From NCBI RefSeq assembly GCF_003790525.1, contig NZ_CP033635.1: a DNA stretch of 64,000 nucleotides; one strand, given 5' to 3'. Below are positions 25,211-45,930 of the stretch, in pieces. Below the pieces are notes generated by a model. It was not told where the DNA came from. It did no database searches and saw only the letters and a program-made list of their open reading frames with translations. The position numbers were made by a program, and so were the translations under genes. Within the stretch, counting starts at the first letter, position 1, and every line of letters starts with the position of its first letter. The stretch is from Escherichia coli (GTDB lineage Bacteria; Pseudomonadota; Gammaproteobacteria; Enterobacterales; Enterobacteriaceae).

Positions 25211-26065
25211 TTAAATAGAGACTGCGGGTTGCAGACTGACTTTAATGTCAGCTGGTGTCGCGTAATAAGGCGCGGAGGTAATAAAAAGGCGAATGCCGCA
25301 GTCGAGGTAATTTTTGAGTGTTGTCAGATTAATTCCGCCGGTCAGAGCCAGCGTGCAGTGAGGAGCCAGCGACGGTGCTATTTGCGCAATTTCAGTTGCC
25401 TGTTGCGGATTAAATTTGTCGAGCTGAAGTACGTCTGGTTGCGCGCGTAACGCGGCGATTGCCTCTTTCGGCGTGTCGGCTTCAACAACTATTTTCTTCT
25501 CGGGTGCGTGGCGACGTAACTGATTGATTGCGCCTGACCAGTCCTGATTGTCATGAAGAAAATGACGGTGGTTGGCAAACAATAATATGGTTTCCGCACA
25601 TCCGGCACGATGAATCAGTCCTCCGGCAGCCAGAATTGCCTGCGAGGCCAGTAAGCGGGTGCCCGGAATTGCTTTTCGGGTGCAGGCGATATTGCCATCA
25701 GGGTAACGTTCACGAAGTAACGCCAGCATTTGAGCGAGATAATCAGAAACACCGCAACTCCACTCCAGCACATTCTGGACTGCCTTCCATCCCTGATGAA
25801 GTGCTGCGGCATTACCTTGCGCACGGATTAGCCGCTGACCCGCGTTCGCTTGTGAACCGTCGCTGACCGCGTTATCAATAGTTAATCCCAGCGTAGTTAA
25901 CATCTTACACGCGACAGAAATTCCGCTGACGCAGCCGCCCTGACGGTGAAAAAACTCTATATAGCCATGCTGGTGTCCAATATTTAATGCTCGCGTGGTC
26001 AGGTCACCGCCCTGGATATCTTCCAGAAGTAACGCATCGATTTGTGCCTGAGAAAGGAAAATCAT
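25211..26065 (-). CDS. ModD-like protein (quinolinate/nicotinate-nucleotide phosphoribosyltransferase family homolog)
   Basis: 284-aa ORF with type II PRTase-like sequence; family assignment from memory of ModD/QPRTase features. Confidence 0.6.
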   Translation of the reverse strand: MIFLSQAQIDALLLEDIQGGDLTTRALNIGHQHGYIEFFHRQGGCVSGISVACKMLTTLGLTIDNAVSDGSQANAGQRLIRAQGNAAALHQGWKAVQNVLEWSCGVSDYLAQMLALLRERYPDGNIACTRKAIPGTRLLASQAILAAGGLIHRAGCAETILLFANHRHFLHDNQDWSGAINQLRRHAPEKKIVVEADTPKEAIAALRAQPDVLQLDKFNPQQATEIAQIAPSLAPHCTLALTGGINLTTLKNYLDCGIRLFITSAPYYATPADIKVSLQPAVSI

Positions 26066-26874
26066 CGCAGTGCCTCTTGCGGTACGCTATCCCACCAGAT
26101 GAGCGCCCAGTCGCGGCTGGCAGGGGCGAGGGCACGAGCATCTTGTTGTTGATACCAGTGATATAACCGCTCACGCTCATCGTCGTTAAGCGCGCCAAGA
26201 CTCCAGCTGACGTTCTGCTCAAAACGTTCCCAGGTGCTGTTATCCTGTTGGCAATTTTGTCCACGGATAAAATCAACGTGGGCATAAATTCCCATCTGAT
26301 ACAGGACGTTGAGCGCAAATATATAGTTGGGTAATTCGATCACTTCCCGACCAGCCGCCCGCTGAATGGCTGGAGAGACGAACGAGGTGCTGACCAGATG
26401 AGTCGTATAGACGCGAAGCCGTGCCTGATTATTCAGTTTGCTCATTGCCTGGCGCATATCAGCCACCAGAGTGGAGCGGGAAGCCACGGCAATATCGCAG
26501 CGTGGCAGGTCACTCCAGTCCTCTTCCCAGGCGCGCTGGATCCAGTGGACATTGTCTGCCTTTAGCGCGGCGGCGCGACGGGCGGCAACGTTCAGCATCC
26601 CCTGACTGTAATCAACGCCATAAATCGTCGTGAGTTTGTCAGCCAGCGCCAGCGATACGGTACCCGGTCCGCAGCCCATATCGAATAAGGTTTGTGCGCC
26701 TTGCAGATCAATTTTAGCGGTCAGTTGTTGCAGGTAGCTGTCCGTAGGCGAGGCGCAATTTTCCGCCATTTTTTCCGCCCGTTGATCCCAGTGATCCGGC
26801 GTTTTTTCTGTGCGATGGGCCAGCCTGAGTTGCTGAAGGTAAAGGTCTGCAAAATCAATATCATCAATGAGCAT
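26062..26874 (-). CDS. Class I SAM-dependent methyltransferase
   Basis: 270-aa ORF with motif I FDMGCGPGTVS; stop overlaps the ModD-like start. Confidence 0.7.
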   Translation of the reverse strand: MLIDDIDFADLYLQQLRLAHRTEKTPDHWDQRAEKMAENCASPTDSYLQQLTAKIDLQGAQTLFDMGCGPGTVSLALADKLTTIYGVDYSQGMLNVAARRAAALKADNVHWIQRAWEEDWSDLPRCDIAVASRSTLVADMRQAMSKLNNQARLRVYTTHLVSTSFVSPAIQRAAGREVIELPNYIFALNVLYQMGIYAHVDFIRGQNCQQDNSTWERFEQNVSWSLGALNDDERERLYHWYQQQDARALAPASRDWALIWWDSVPQEALR

Positions 26875-26883
26875 GATTTTTCC

Positions 26884-27642
26884 TTAGTGCTTAATTGCAG
26901 AGAGGTGATGGTGAATCTGGTCGGCAGAAACCCGGTACAGGGCAGCCAGTTTTTTCGTTGTTAACTGTTCGGTCGGTAAGCCTTGTGTTACACGTCCATC
27001 TGGCTCTACCTGGATAATGCTGTCGGCAATGGCGTTGGCATGGAGCGGATGATGAGTCGACATTAACATTGTCATGCCGTTATTTTTGAGCTGCGCCAGC
27101 GTGTCCAGTAGTTGGATCTGATGACCGAAATCGAGGCTGGAGGCAGGCTCATCCAGTAATAACAAGCGCGGTTGCTGGACGAGTGCACGGGCGATTAAAG
27201 CCAGCTGACGTTCACCGCCGCTAAGCGTATTCCAGCGTCGTGTCGCCAGATGCAAAATGCCCAGCTTTTCCAGTTGCTCCGTTGCTTTCAGGCGTTCTTG
27301 CTTACCGGGAACGGAAAAAGCGCCTATGGTGGGGGCCAGGCCCATCAACACCATATCCAGCACACTAAAAGCAAAAATGCCGTCGTGCGCCTGCGGCACC
27401 CAGGCAATAGCCTGCGCGCGCTGGCGATGGCTGAGTGTCTGCACAGGGAGGCTATCCAGTAAGATCTCGCCTTTTAATAACGGTATAACGCCAAGAATGG
27501 AGCGCATGAGTGTGGTTTTGCCGCAACCATTGGCTCCTAACAGACAACAAATTGTTCCTTGCGACAGGGTGAAGGACACGTCGCGTAGCACCGGATGGCG
27601 GGAGTAACCCAGAGACGCATGACGGACGGCAAGCAAAGTCAC
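26884..27642 (-). CDS. ABC transporter ATP-binding protein (iron-chelate/FecE-BtuD type)
   Basis: Walker A GANGCGKTT, signature LSGGERQ, Walker B LLLDEP; start set at GTG (GGAGG RBS) overlapping the permease stop. Confidence 0.85.
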   Translation of the reverse strand: MTLLAVRHASLGYSRHPVLRDVSFTLSQGTICCLLGANGCGKTTLMRSILGVIPLLKGEILLDSLPVQTLSHRQRAQAIAWVPQAHDGIFAFSVLDMVLMGLAPTIGAFSVPGKQERLKATEQLEKLGILHLATRRWNTLSGGERQLALIARALVQQPRLLLLDEPASSLDFGHQIQLLDTLAQLKNNGMTMLMSTHHPLHANAIADSIIQVEPDGRVTQGLPTEQLTTKKLAALYRVSADQIHHHLSAIKH

Positions 27643-28619
27643 TGGCGACCTCCGCGTAACAACAAAAACAGGAAAAACGGTGCGCCAACAAAAGCGGTCA
27701 GAATGCCAAGTGGGATTTCTGTTGTTCCAATGCTGCGTGCCAGCGTATCGGTAAGCAGGAGCAGAATCGCGCCAGTACACATTGCCATGGGCAACAGCTG
27801 CTGATGGTTATGACCGGTCAACAAGCGGGCAATGTGCGGAACGACCAGGCCGACCCAACCAATTATGCCCGCTATTGCTACCGTGCTGGCGGTGATGAGT
27901 GTGGCGCAGACAATCAATCCAAAGCGCAGACGTGTCACGTTCAGTCCCAGCGAACGGGCTTCGTCGTCGGAAAGTGTGAGTAAATTCATGCGCCAGCGGA
28001 GAAAAAACAGGGGCAAGGAGCCTATGAGAATGATCGGTGCAGCATAGCAGAGATCGCGTAAGGTCACGGTGGACAGCCCCCCCAGCAACCAGAAGGTAAT
28101 TGACGGTAACTGGGTGTAAGGATCGGCCAGCGTTTTTATTAGCGATATCCCCGCTCCGCACAACGTGCCTAACGCAATACCTACCAGCACCAGGGTTAAG
28201 ATCGGATCGTGGCGGGTCACCCGACGCGTAATCAACCAGACGCCCGCGACCACCATCAGCCCGCCGCAAAATGCGTACAGCTGGATGTAAACAATGGATA
28301 ATCCCCACAGGATTGCCGCGCAGGCACCAAGTCCGGCACCGGCGGAGACGCCTAAAATATCCGGTGACACTAAGGGATTACGGAACATTCCCTGATAGGT
28401 GGTTCCAGCCCCTGCCAGCGCCGCGCCCAGAAACAGCGCAGCAAGAATACGCGGCACGCGGATTTGCCAGAAGACAATTTGTTCCTGCACAGGAACATTT
28501 TCTTGACGAAGAATGAGCGCCAGCAGTTGCTGCATATCGAGATGATAAGCCCCACTTACGGCGGCAAAAGTGATACTGATAGCTGCCAGCAGCAAAATAC
28601 ATCCGTTTACGGTTCTCAT
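27639..28619 (-). CDS. ABC transporter permease (FecCD/BtuC family)
   Basis: 326-aa polytopic membrane protein; start overlaps the binding-protein stop. Confidence 0.85.
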   Translation of the reverse strand: MRTVNGCILLLAAISITFAAVSGAYHLDMQQLLALILRQENVPVQEQIVFWQIRVPRILAALFLGAALAGAGTTYQGMFRNPLVSPDILGVSAGAGLGACAAILWGLSIVYIQLYAFCGGLMVVAGVWLITRRVTRHDPILTLVLVGIALGTLCGAGISLIKTLADPYTQLPSITFWLLGGLSTVTLRDLCYAAPIILIGSLPLFFLRWRMNLLTLSDDEARSLGLNVTRLRFGLIVCATLITASTVAIAGIIGWVGLVVPHIARLLTGHNHQQLLPMAMCTGAILLLLTDTLARSIGTTEIPLGILTAFVGAPFFLFLLLRGGRQ

Positions 28620-29641
28620 TAGCTCGCCACCAATTTTTGATAGTCGGCGTCACTGAGTGAACAATGCCAGAACAGTTGGGCGTAATGCTGCATGTCACTT
28701 TTAAACTGGCGATTGATGGCGGGATCCAGCCAGGCGTGAAGTCTGCGTAATCCCAGAAGACGGTTGATTCCCGGCGGGGCATCCAGCCAGCCAAAGGGCA
28801 GGCCACTTAAAAATAAGATGCGTTGTTCCGCAACCGCTTTCACGCCCTGCCAGAGAGGATCACGACGAATAAAATCTGCAGTAACGGCCTCCTGAACCAG
28901 AATAATATCCGGCTGCCAGCGCAGGAGATTTTCCATGGAAACCTGTGTCAGACCGTGGCGATCGGCTATTTGCGCGACGTTGTGCAAACCTAATAATTCC
29001 GCCGCCTCGGTATGCAACGAACCCTGTAAGCCCGTTTCCAGCCCTCGAGGACCGCGCGCAGCATAAAAGCTGAGGTTAGCGGCGGGTGAGGTGGCGAATG
29101 CCTGAGCTTCACCAACGAAGCGGCTGGCGAGATTGGCTTGTTCTGCGGCGCGGTGCTCTTCGCCTAACGTTTTGCCAAGCGTTGTTAACTGTTCTGCTGA
29201 TTGTTCCAGTTTCCCGTTAAGCAATAACCAGGGTATTTGTGTCTGTTCGCTAACCTGCCGTGCCTGGGAGATCCAGGTTTCATCCGTATTGCCGCAATCA
29301 ACGACCAAATCGGGATGTAACGCCATAAGCCCTTCCAGCGAGAGTGTGCTGGCGCGCCCGGCGAGTCGTCCCAGCCTGGGGAACTGGCGAATGTGCTCTG
29401 GCAATGGAATTAATGCCTGACGGGCAAAATCAAAAGAGGAAAAACCGACCATTTTTTCTGGCGCGACAGCCAGCAATAGTAAATCGGCGGGCGCGCCTGC
29501 GCTGACGATGCGTGTAATGTTTTGGGCTTCGGGAAGCGTCAGTGAGGACCAGAATTTGACTGATTGTGCAAAGGACGGCAGATGATGCAGGAACAATGTC
29601 GACGCAAGAATCTGTGTAAACCTCCGTCTGGTTAGTGACAT
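28619..29641 (-). CDS. Periplasmic substrate-binding protein (TroA/BtuF/FhuD-like) with Tat-like signal peptide
   Basis: Start set at internal ATG with RBS-like cagga; N-terminus MSLTRRRFTQILASTLFLHHLPSFAQ. Confidence 0.7.
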   Translation of the reverse strand: MSLTRRRFTQILASTLFLHHLPSFAQSVKFWSSLTLPEAQNITRIVSAGAPADLLLLAVAPEKMVGFSSFDFARQALIPLPEHIRQFPRLGRLAGRASTLSLEGLMALHPDLVVDCGNTDETWISQARQVSEQTQIPWLLLNGKLEQSAEQLTTLGKTLGEEHRAAEQANLASRFVGEAQAFATSPAANLSFYAARGPRGLETGLQGSLHTEAAELLGLHNVAQIADRHGLTQVSMENLLRWQPDIILVQEAVTADFIRRDPLWQGVKAVAEQRILFLSGLPFGWLDAPPGINRLLGLRRLHAWLDPAINRQFKSDMQHYAQLFWHCSLSDADYQKLVAS

Positions 29642-29970
29642 AAGTAATATCCTGATAATTAAAACCGCTATATACTTACACATATAGCGAAAAAGATCAT
29701 GTTTGATGTCAAAATTTGTCTAAAGAGACAGAATGATTTGCTTGTTTCTTAAATAACACTTTGTTCCACAAGAAAATTGTCAGGGAGAATGGGGAGTGGG
29801 GGAAAATATAAATAGAGGTGTAATGATTAACAAGTTGATAAAATAAAATTAAAATCTTCTCTAATAAAAGAAAATAAAGGCATAGACCGTAGAAAGAGTG
29901 GTATTTCGTGGTGAAGAAAGAGCAATGCCAATTTTATGCATGTAATGGCATTGCTCGATATACAGTAAAG

Positions 29971-31668
29971 TTAAGGCGTAGGTTCCGCCTCTTTTTGTTT
30001 TAGCGGCTGTGTTGTTGATTCACTGAGTGGACGCGTCGCCGGAACATTGTCACACGGTTGCTCTTTCGGGCAGATCAAATCCAGCATTTTCAGCGTCACG
30101 CCATTGGTCCAGCCAAAGCCATCCTGTAATGGATATTCGCCACCGCCGCCCCCTGTTCCGGTGGCGCTGACATCATATTTTTCCACCAGCTTTTTCTCCC
30201 GGTCATAGGTGTTCTGAACATTGGTCAGGAAGTGCCAGCTAATGTCCATCGCCACCTCTTTTTGCCCGTAGTTTTGTAATCCTTCTGTCGCGACCCACTG
30301 CAACGGTGCCCAGCCGTTTGGCGCATCCCATTGTTGTCCACTTTTCACCGACGTGGTGTTCAGGCCGCCGGGTTGCAGCAGATGTGTTTTCGTCGCCGTC
30401 GCCATTTTGCTGGCGCGATCTTTCGCTGCCGCATTGACGTACAGCGGGAACAGGGCGGCCGCGGTTAACTGATTGCGCACTTTATGACTTTTCAGGTCGT
30501 AATCGGCATACCAGCCTTGTTGATCGTTCCACAGGTATTTTTCGATCCCTTTTTGACGGGCATTCGCCAGCGTTTCGTACTGGTTTGCCATCGCGTTATC
30601 TCCGGCAGCTTTGCTGGCGCGGGCGAGGATTTTTTCCATTTTAAACATCAGGCTGTTCAGATCGACCGGTACGATGCTGGTGGTGCGTAAGGTATTTAAC
30701 TGCTGCGGATTGTCCATCCAGCGCGAGCTGAAATCCCAGCCAGACGCAGCGGCAGAGCGCAGATCGCGGTAAATTTCAGTGGCAGGTCGATTCGGATTGC
30801 TTTTGGCGGTGGCAATATCTTCCACCCATGACTCTGGTCGTGGCGTATCGCGATCGTCCCAGTAGCGGTTGAGAAGGGTACCATCCTGAAGTTTGACAAC
30901 GCGTTTTTCCTGTTGTCCGGCTTGCAGGTTTTCAACACCGTCCATCCAGTAAGCATATTCTTTTTGCATTTGCGGCAGGTATTGTTTCAACGCGGCATCG
31001 CCTTCATGCTGCGCCAGTAACTCTACCATCAGGGCAAAGAAGGGCGGCTGCGAGCGGCTTAAATAGTAACTGCGGTTGCCGTTGGGAATATGACCGTAAG
31101 TGTCTATTTCATGAGCAAAATTGGCCACCATATCCGCGACTTTATCCCAGTGACCGCTTTCGGCAAGTCCTAACATGGTGAAGTAACTGTCCCAGTAATA
31201 TACCTCGCGAAAACGTCCGCCCGGCACGACATAAGGTTCCGGCAGCGGTAACAGAGAATCCCATTTTTCGGTATTTTCGGTAGCACGCGTTAATACCGGC
31301 CAAAGTCCGTCAATATGTTCGCGCAGTGACTGCCCCTCTGGCGGAACATATTTCTCGCCCTCTTTTGGCAGGGTGAAATTGACGTTAACGAAATGGCGCA
31401 GATCAAATCCGCTCTGGTTTTGCTGCATCCGATAATCAGCAAGGATCATCAGCGGATCGCTGTTCGGCACGGCATCGGCAAAGGTTTTTTGGTCCGGAAA
31501 AAGTTTGGCGTTTTGCACATCATTAAACAGCGGCCCTAATAAAATATCAGGCGGCTGTGGCGTTACCGATGTTTCTTCTGCCTGCACCGATAGCGCAGCA
31601 AAACACAAAAAGATGCAGGCTGGAATTAACGCCATTTTTTGCGGGCGAGAAGGGGTGGGGGATTTCAT
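29971..31668 (-). CDS. treA: Periplasmic trehalase
   Basis: 565-aa [24 protein letters not shown]...; matches TreA. Confidence 0.95.
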
Positions 31669-44673: not shown

Positions 44674-45930
44674 ATGACCCTTTTAGCACTCGGTATCAAC
44701 CATAAAACGGCACCTGTATCGCTGCGAGAACGTGTATCGTTTTCGCCGGATAAGCTCGATCAGGCGCTTGACAGCCTGCTTGCGCAGCCGATGGTGCAGG
44801 GCGGTGTGGTGCTGTCGACGTGTAACCGCACAGAACTTTATCTCAGCGTTGAAGAACGGGATGACCTGCAAGAGGCGCTCATTCGCTGGTTGTGTGATTA
44901 CCATAATCTCAACGAAGACGATCTGCGTAATAGCCTCTACTGGCATCAGGATAACGATGCGGTCAGTCATTTAATGCGCGTTGCCAGTGGGCTTGATTCT
45001 CTCGTCCTTGGCGAGCCGCAGATCCTCGGTCAGGTTAAAAAAGCGTTTGCCGATTCGCAAAAAGGTCATATGAAGGCCAGCGAACTGGAACGCATGTTTC
45101 AGAAATCTTTCTCTGTAGCGAAACGCGTTCGCACTGAAACAGATATCGGTGCCAGTGCTGTGTCTGTCGCTTTTGCGGCTTGTACGCTGGCGCGGCAGAT
45201 CTTTGAATCGCTCTCTACGGTGACGGTACTGCTGGTGGGTGCGGGCGAAACCATCGAGCTGGTGGCGCGTCATCTGCGTGAACACAAAGTACAGAAGATG
45301 ATTATCGCCAACCGCACTCGCGAACGTGCCCAAATTCTGGCAGATGAAGTCGGCGCGGAAGTGATTGCCCTGAGCGATATCGACGAGCGTCTGCGCGAAG
45401 CCGATATCATCATCAGTTCCACCGCCAGCCCGTTACCGATTATCGGTAAAGGCATGGTGGAGCGGGCATTAAAAAGCCGTCGCAACCAACCAATGCTGTT
45501 GGTGGATATTGCCGTTCCGCGCGATGTTGAGCCGGAAGTTGGCAAACTGGCGAATGCTTATCTTTACAGCGTTGATGATCTGCAAAGCATCATTTCGCAC
45601 AACCTGGCGCAGCGTAAAGCCGCAGCGGTTGAGGCGGAAACTATTGTCGCTCAGGAAACCAGCGAATTTATGGCGTGGCTGCGCGCACAAAGCGCCAGCG
45701 AGACCATTCGCGAGTATCGCAGCCAGGCAGAGCACGTTCGCGATGAGTTAACCGCCAAAGCGTTAGCGGCCCTTGAGCAGGGCGGCGACGCTCAAGCCAT
45801 TATGCAGGATCTGGCATGGAAACTGACTAACCGCCTGATCCATGCGCCAACGAAATCACTTCAACAGGCCGCCCGTGACGGGGATAACGAACGCCTGAAT
45901 ATTCTGCGCGACAGCCTCGGGCTGGAGTAG
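44674..45930 (+). CDS. hemA: Glutamyl-tRNA reductase
   Basis: 418-aa ORF from [15 protein letters not shown]; ORF-track 5' extension rejected. Confidence 0.95.

Follow-up and report, generated by a model that had tools for sequence, protein, structure and literature searches.

A predicted ModE operator in front of an accessory Escherichia coli uptake operon annotated as an iron transporter

Which metal governs a six-gene uptake operon of Escherichia coli that is annotated everywhere as an iron transporter? The operon lies downstream of treA (29971–31668) in a 64,000-nucleotide stretch of the chromosome, referred to here as the window; all genes around the 329-bp gap between the two (positions 29642–29970) are on the minus strand. 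Gene annotation was that of RefSeq for the SMS-3-5 chromosome (NC_010498.1), to which the window is 100% identical, with NCBIfam and Pfam matches added. The first gene codes for a substrate-binding protein, labeled in RefSeq as a component of an “iron ABC (ATP-binding cassette) transporter”, and is followed by genes for a permease, an ATPase, a methyltransferase, ModD and a TonB-dependent receptor (Table 1). A preliminary description of this DNA had read the gap as the AT-rich control region of an uptake operon, containing an inverted repeat and hexamers that resemble the Fur box, and had proposed scans for ModE, Fur and Zur sites. Gene content and position agreed with a control region of this kind, and its limits were confirmed by the binding-protein start codon (29641–29639, minus strand) and the treA stop codon (29971–29973). 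We found that the inverted repeat is, with a probability of about 0.88 as judged from its sequence, an operator for the molybdate-responsive regulator ModE. A ModE operator in front of the operon makes molybdate, and not iron, the predicted signal, and the operon is most likely switched on under molybdenum shortage.

ModE with bound molybdate is known to repress molybdate uptake genes (PMC11672702, PMC8264917), and its E. coli consensus has been quoted as ATCGNTATATA-N6-TATATANCGAT (PMC545781). We scanned for the core pattern CGNTATATA-N6-TATATANCG, which has 16 specified positions, or 20 when flanks are included. The repeat cgctatat-N8-atatagcg was present as described earlier, although displaced by one base from the position then given for it, its true coordinates being 29666–29689. 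It reads CGCTATATA-CTTACA-CATATAGCG on the plus strand and CGCTATATG-TGTAAG-TATATAGCG on the minus strand, matching the core at 15 of 16 positions, or at 17 of 20 when the flanks are counted, and its spacer has the required length of 6 bp. This was the one site with at most three mismatches in the 64-kb window, where 0.05 were expected. When the region was dinucleotide-shuffled 20,000 times, the best result had three mismatches, compared with one in the real site, and no shuffle came within two mismatches of the core pattern (analytic probability ~1.7e-5). The repeat is, as described earlier, the notable element of the region. Operators read from the K-12 genome scored similarly, modA (CGTTATATTGTCGCCTACATAACG) matching at 14 and moaA (CGCTATATACATGATTACATAGCG) at 15 of the 16 positions, and these two were the only matches in 110 kb of K-12 control loci that included fep, fec and fhu. 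The location of the box is also similar: 24 nucleotides (nt) separate its end from the binding-protein ATG, and 19 nt separate the end of the modA operator from the modA ATG.

The complete 329-bp gap was found in 2147 of 5426 complete E. coli genomes (~40%), the same ones that carry the operon, including O157:H7 and ST131 strains. In five E. coli gap alleles with 91.6–100% identity the ModE box was kept throughout; substitutions within it affected the N position or the spacer, or brought the box closer to the consensus. The O157-type box (CGATATATATGTAAATATATAGCG) shows all three kinds, with three differences from that of SMS-3-5 (one at the N position, one in the spacer and one position moved towards the consensus), and matches the core at 16 of 16 positions. 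For a wider comparison, a profile of the binding protein was used with one genome per species, which gave 34 loci (protein identity 50–99%; 530 kb from about 12 genera) in Escherichia, Citrobacter, Yokenella, Symbiopectobacterium, Enterobacter, Klebsiella, Raoultella, Affinibrenneria, Serratia, Erwinia and Shewanella. Gene order was conserved across these loci. Of the 33 loci scanned, 32 had a box with 0–3 mismatches upstream of the binding-protein gene, reaching as far as Shewanella, where protein identity is 50%. In the remaining locus (L038), which showed no box, the start was mislocated, as the protein match begins at residue 37. The distance from box to start codon was 19–34 nt in 29 of the 32 boxed loci, and in Erwinia and two Affinibrenneria loci the box lay 211–252 nt upstream. 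Across the 530 kb, 33 boxes with three or fewer mismatches were upstream of the binding-protein gene and only three were elsewhere.

Two of these three other boxes immediately preceded the operon's own receptor gene, in Shewanella fodinae (L048, 11740–11763, no mismatches, receptor gene starting at 11779) and in Serratia sp. H1w (L046, 9061–9084, three mismatches, receptor gene starting at 9121). The receptor may thus have its own ModE-controlled promoter in these two loci. ModD was missing in Shewanella and a few enteric lineages (L043–L045, L048–L050 and L041), in which the binding protein, permease, ATPase, methyltransferase, receptor and ModE box were all kept. This distribution suggested that the methyltransferase, and not ModD, is the constant accessory enzyme of the system.

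The genes of the operon have molybdenum links of their own. The best solved relative of the permease was HI1471 MolB (E 9e-65), followed by FhuB (2e-50) and BtuC (~1e-41), and the ATPase was 36% identical to MolC; both relatives belong to MolBC-A of Haemophilus influenzae, a molybdate/tungstate importer (PMC4031551). The profile of the binding protein matched MolA (HI_1472, E 2.4e-13), and its best solved relative was 4pag, a periplasmic binding protein; for the TonB-dependent receptor, no solved relative was found at E ≤1e-10. ModD was 46% identical to H. influenzae ModD, which is encoded immediately upstream of molA-molB-molC. Besides, ModE-like boxes were detected in H. influenzae (L054) 30 nt before molA (13/16) and 34 nt before a modA-like gene (14/16), and in another member of the Pasteurellaceae 22 nt before molA (14/16). 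The L054 boxes are located at 5905–5928 and 2879–2902, and the box in L055/L056 at 5922–5945. Molybdate-dependent repression of H. influenzae molB has been measured and ascribed to an “unknown factor” (PMC4031551); ModE acting at the molA box is a candidate for this factor.

The predicted operator is of the same type as that of K-12 modABC: both are 24-bp palindromes of the form CGNTATATA-N6-TATATANCG, both are just upstream of the ribosome-binding site of a periplasmic-binding-protein gene (24 and 19 nt before the respective start codons), and the regulator gene modE is present in the species. In contrast to the type I importer ModABC, however, the operon codes for a type II (FecCD/BtuC-like) importer together with a TonB-dependent receptor, a methyltransferase and ModD. 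Its box is also nearer the consensus (15–16 of 16 positions, versus 14 at modA), the operon is accessory, and its repression is predicted. The similarity to H. influenzae MolBC-A (HI1470/HI1471/HI1472) comprises the MolB-like permease, the MolC-like ATPase, the MolA profile match, modD beside the transporter genes, and a ModE-like box before the binding-protein gene (22–30 nt in the Pasteurellaceae). The two systems differ in that the H. influenzae molA box is weaker (13/16, compared with 15/16 here) and the binding proteins are distant enough (26% identity) that their ligands may differ; also, H. influenzae molABC has no neighboring gene for a TonB-dependent receptor or methyltransferase within the L054 stretch, which ends ~0.4 kb past molC. 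In family composition (TonB-dependent receptor, Peripla_BP_2, FecCD permease and ATPase) the operon resembles the E. coli systems fep, fhu, fec, cir and fiu. Unlike these siderophore systems, whose Fur boxes scored 5.8–16.6 bits in leave-one-out tests, it has a chance-level Fur score and a ModE box instead, and none of the K-12 iron loci scanned had such a box. Another grouping of ModD with TonB-dependent receptors, at high molybdenum demand, is seen in Zymomonas mobilis, whose nif cluster holds modD, modE and two TonB-dependent transporter genes (PMC8594446). A search of the papers available retrieved none on the operon, although the site may have been predicted earlier in regulon surveys or RegPrecise, and none that describes an enterobacterial TonB-dependent system under the control of ModE. 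Searching by O157 locus tags (guessed as Z1961–Z1966) gave no operon study and one passing mention of Z1966. ModE operators are well known, and what is new here is the target of a known regulator.

A rival reading, along the lines of the preliminary description, is that Fe(II)-Fur, bound to the hexamers at 29654–29672 and/or 29819–29837, represses an iron-uptake operon when iron is plentiful. Peripla_BP_2, FecCD and TonB-dependent receptor families often carry iron chelates, the RefSeq label of the binding protein names iron, and the GATAAT-type stretches reported earlier were indeed present (cctgataattaaaacc, 29651–29666, and taatgattaacaagttgataaaat, 29821–29844). The 13 matches in 19 positions counted earlier against the Fur consensus were also reproduced, for 29654–29672. 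We built a 19-bp Fur matrix by iterative refinement from the consensus, using 15 Fur-regulated promoters of K-12 (fepA-fes, fepD-entS, fepB-entC, fhuA, cirA, fiu, fecI, fecA, tonB, exbB, ryhB, fhuE, fhuF, sufA and feoA); the consensus of the matrix was GATAATGATAATCATTATC and the median leave-one-out score was 12.8 bits. With this matrix, the best site in the control region scored 8.45 bits, exceeding 2 of the 15 leave-one-out scores (fecA and fhuE), but 11.7% of 2000 dinucleotide-preserving shuffles reached the same value, and 96% of them reached the 0.44 bits of the second site. The resemblance to Fur boxes is thus best seen as a chance product of an AT-rich stretch. Moreover, the better site is located between the palindrome and the Shine-Dalgarno sequence and not over a −35 or −10 element, and neither site was conserved: the matrix maximum upstream of orthologous operons was mostly below 6 bits and had no fixed position, the ATTATC/GATAAT motif was lost outside Escherichia, the region of the second site was absent in other genera, and the O157 allele had a substitution within it. 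Conservation is instead highest at the ModE box, and among solved transporters a molybdate importer is the closest; we regard control by Fur as very unlikely. The highest Fur-matrix scores in the window, 12.0 bits (28605–28623, where the binding-protein gene meets the permease gene within the operon) and 12.9 bits (44726–44744), were outside the control region and are probably chance matches in coding DNA. The Zur scan was also unproductive, as the best match to GAAATGTTATAATATAACATTTC (14/23) fell within a plain A/T run.

The AT-richness of the gap was confirmed (31.3% G+C in 329 bp, versus 50.6% in the whole window); it is the most AT-rich 329 nt of the 64 kb, where only 0.02% of windows of this length are equally AT-rich. 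This feature had been linked with H-NS silencing of foreign DNA, and the gap could serve chiefly to nucleate H-NS, so that a horizontally acquired island is silenced, with the repeat being incidental. The presence of the operon in just 2147 of 5426 genomes, and the fact that homology to K-12 restarts only within the 3′ end of treA, would fit an island. However, the G+C content of the operon (52.4%) equals that of treA (52.0%), and six more lineages have the operon by treA: it follows treA directly in Citrobacter, Raoultella, Enterobacter, a Klebsiella metagenome-assembled genome (MAG) and isolate RIT693, and is ~1.6 kb away in E. albertii. This suggested that the position is ancestral, the K-12 lineage being without the operon. 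In other genera, the gap between treA and the operon is 182–255 nt long with 37–50% G+C; an extra AT-rich segment of roughly 120 nt (about 29713–29920) is restricted to Escherichia, whereas the ModE box is kept everywhere. H-NS silencing is therefore not supported as the main explanation and we consider it unlikely; it would also leave the palindrome unexplained, although H-NS binding could coexist with ModE control. We also considered that the repeat might work as a hairpin in the 5′-leader RNA instead of binding a protein, acting as an intrinsic terminator or an attenuator (UUUUAAUUAU follows the 11-pair stem) or altering translation, because a terminator scan reported it on the minus strand (11 pairs, a 4-nt loop and a T-rich tail) and the predicted leader fold has this stem (−10.7 kcal/mol). 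Only three of the pairs are G-C, however, and among 23 distinct orthologous boxes covariation was not above that of shuffles (83 of 500 reached the observed score). The sole freely varying pair, N3:N22, was unpaired in 8 of the 23 sequences, and a C-to-A change at this pair in the O157 allele was left uncompensated. The T-rich tail was not conserved either (AAATATTGCG in Symbiopectobacterium, AATATTGTGG in Shewanella), the K-12 modA and moaA operators share the sequence pattern, and a search of both strands of 28500–31000 against Rfam, which includes the molybdenum cofactor (Moco) and cobalamin riboswitches, gave no match at E ≤1. Conservation of the TATATA sequence rather than of pairing is as expected for a protein-binding site, and the hairpin appears highly improbable. 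We give a similarly small chance to another regulator that shares a TATAT-rich palindromic site: AT-rich palindromes can be recognized by several proteins and ModE binding here is predicted, but the match extends to features specific to the ModE consensus, namely its CG dinucleotides and the exact length of its spacer (6 bp), the same pattern recovered nothing but known ModE operators in the K-12 control DNA, no regulator gene was present in or beside the operon in any locus, and the ModD and MolB homologies link the genes to molybdenum independently.

Matches to promoter elements in the AT-rich spacer were at the chance level (2 seen, 1.8 expected), and the spacer had no Rfam match. Its only minus-strand promoter match, TTGTTA-17-TATATT (29833–29805), was rejected, as it lies in the Escherichia-specific segment and the number of matches equals the shuffle expectation. 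A candidate −35 hexamer, TTGACA, lies in the conserved element next to the ModE box and ends 17 nt upstream of the box. TTGAY occurs at the identical distance in all Enterobacteriaceae orthologs, and the sequence further upstream is unalignable. In the clade of Serratia H1w and Klebsiella BIGb0407, the box starts with CATTAT, a good −10 element at 17-nt spacing. Most enteric genera have the FNR-like form TTGAT-N4-nnCAA as their upstream element, starting 23 nt before the ModE box. The box spacer keeps TG (TGTAAA), a possible extended −10 element. The FNR consensus TTGAT-N4-ATCAA was matched at 7 of 10 positions in E. coli and at 8–9 in Citrobacter, Yokenella, Raoultella, Enterobacter and Symbiopectobacterium. 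From E. coli alone we would reject an FNR site, because 7/10 equals other chance matches in the region, and it is of interest only through these relatives; their sequences suggest that, in addition to being repressed by ModE, the operon is activated anaerobically from an FNR class II promoter. Two promoter layouts are possible, TTGACA-17-box and FNR class II, and in both the ModE box would cover the −10/start region. Approximately 30 nt upstream of TTGAT, Citrobacter, Raoultella and Enterobacter (L023–L037) have a palindrome, CCCTTAnGGGG(TA), which is degenerate in E. coli (TTCTTGTGGAA, about 29765–29785) and could be a further candidate binding site.

The most likely mode of control is molybdate-dependent repression by promoter occlusion, by analogy with modABC. 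When molybdate is ample, a ModE-molybdate dimer would bind the palindrome at 29666–29689; being 17 bp downstream of TTGACA and 24 nt before the start codon, the bound dimer would cover the −10/start region and block RNA polymerase. When molybdate is scarce, ModE would leave the DNA and the six-gene operon would be transcribed. Several observations weigh against this model. The −10 element of E. coli is hard to place, as CGCTAT and GCTATA, 17–18 nt after TTGACA, are poor and the better candidate TATATG would require a 20-nt spacer; an activator may be required at this promoter, or the transcript may begin at another place. ModE is also able to act as an activator, and the sign of control was deduced from the position of the box and the modA analogy. 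Occupancy of 29666–29689 by ModE is itself a prediction from sequence comparison, and modE is outside the window, its presence in 5391 of 5426 complete E. coli genomes being a species-wide count and not a statement on SMS-3-5 itself. In addition, the binding protein shares a mere 26% identity with MolA across 233 residues, so its substrate could be other than free molybdate. On balance, sequence comparison indicates that the operon most likely serves the acquisition of molybdenum (or tungsten) and has been misannotated as an iron transporter. A more tentative proposal, which we hold at somewhat less than even odds, is that it forms a dedicated TonB-energized route for molybdenum or tungsten, controlled by ModE and possibly FNR, in ~40% of E. 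coli, many Enterobacterales and Shewanella. In such a route, the outer-membrane receptor would pass its cargo, maybe a molybdenum-chelate complex rather than free molybdate, to the MolBC-like importer, and the methyltransferase and ModD would process it.

Features of the operon and its control region are listed in Table 1. The treA terminator has a predicted stem energy of −18.6 kcal/mol, and across the five E. coli alleles its stem is invariant and its loop variable; other genera have a different GC-rich hairpin and T-run at this place. On the plus strand, a terminator-like hairpin (AGGCGTAGGTTCCGCCT followed by CTTTTTGTTT, 29974–29990) lies in the last codons of treA, one base past the stop codon, and could halt antisense transcription coming from the operon side. 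K-12 has ycgY in place of the operon. The last ~60 bases of treA (29971–30035 in the window, 2680–2745 in K-12 sequence L002) are strongly divergent between SMS-3-5 and K-12, and homology is clean again only inside treA, which places the boundary between the operon and ycgY haplotypes within this gene. In O157:H7 strain F7508 (L016), treA is annotated as a frameshifted pseudogene. The N-terminus of the binding protein (29566–29641, minus strand) reads MSLTRRRFTQILAS..., in which R5 and R6 are invariant in 17 orthologs; it looks like a twin-arginine (Tat) export signal, which would be unusual in such binding proteins. A MAG contig assigned to “Collinsella sp.” (L020) was 99% identical to E. coli across the operon, so bin contamination is probable.

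Table 1. Coordinates of the operon and of elements in its control region (positions in the window)
Feature	Position	Strand	Remarks
Six-gene operon	23215-29641	-	RefSeq annotation, NCBIfam/Pfam matches; gene order kept in orthologous loci
TonB-dependent receptor	23215-25185	-	Sixth operon gene
ModD	25211-26065	-	Fifth operon gene; TIGR01334, E 1e-150
Class I S-adenosylmethionine (SAM)-dependent methyltransferase	26062-26874	-	Fourth operon gene
ABC ATPase	26884-27642	-	Third operon gene
FecCD-type permease	27639-28619	-	Second operon gene
Substrate-binding protein, Peripla_BP_2	28619-29641	-	First operon gene
Shine-Dalgarno AGGA of first operon gene	29650-29653	-	8 nt before ATG; TCAGGA conserved in orthologs
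First Fur-like stretch GATAATTAAAACCGCTATA	29654-29672		8.45 bits; judged a chance match at the edge of the ModE box
Predicted ModE operator core CGCTATATACTTACACATATAGCG	29666-29689 (29664-29691 with consensus flanks)		Consensus match, rarity, conservation
Conserved promoter element TTGACATCAAACAT	29699-29712	-	Perfect -35 hexamer TTGACA at 29712-29707; putative -35 element or activator site
AT-rich spacer, treA terminator to operon promoter	29713-29920		G+C 30-35%
Second Fur-like stretch TGTAATGATTAACAAGTTG	29819-29837		0.44 bits; judged a chance match
Probable treA intrinsic terminator: GAGCAATGCCA, 15-nt loop, TGGCATTGCTC, then TTTCTTC	29921-29957	-	11-bp stem

If the proposed assignment is correct, an accessory operon joins the ModE regulon and its predicted signal shifts from iron to molybdate. 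For H. influenzae, the box 30 nt before molA offers a candidate for the factor behind the repression of the mol operon (PMC4031551). A TonB-energized route, if true, would contradict the usual view that molybdate diffuses through porins (PMC8264917), and the widespread “iron transporter” annotation would be wrong. The finding points to active receptor-mediated acquisition of molybdenum or tungsten by Enterobacterales, both gut inhabitants and pathogens. Anaerobic respiration in the inflamed gut draws on molybdoenzymes, and a second uptake route in O157:H7, ST131 and avian strains could therefore affect their fitness.

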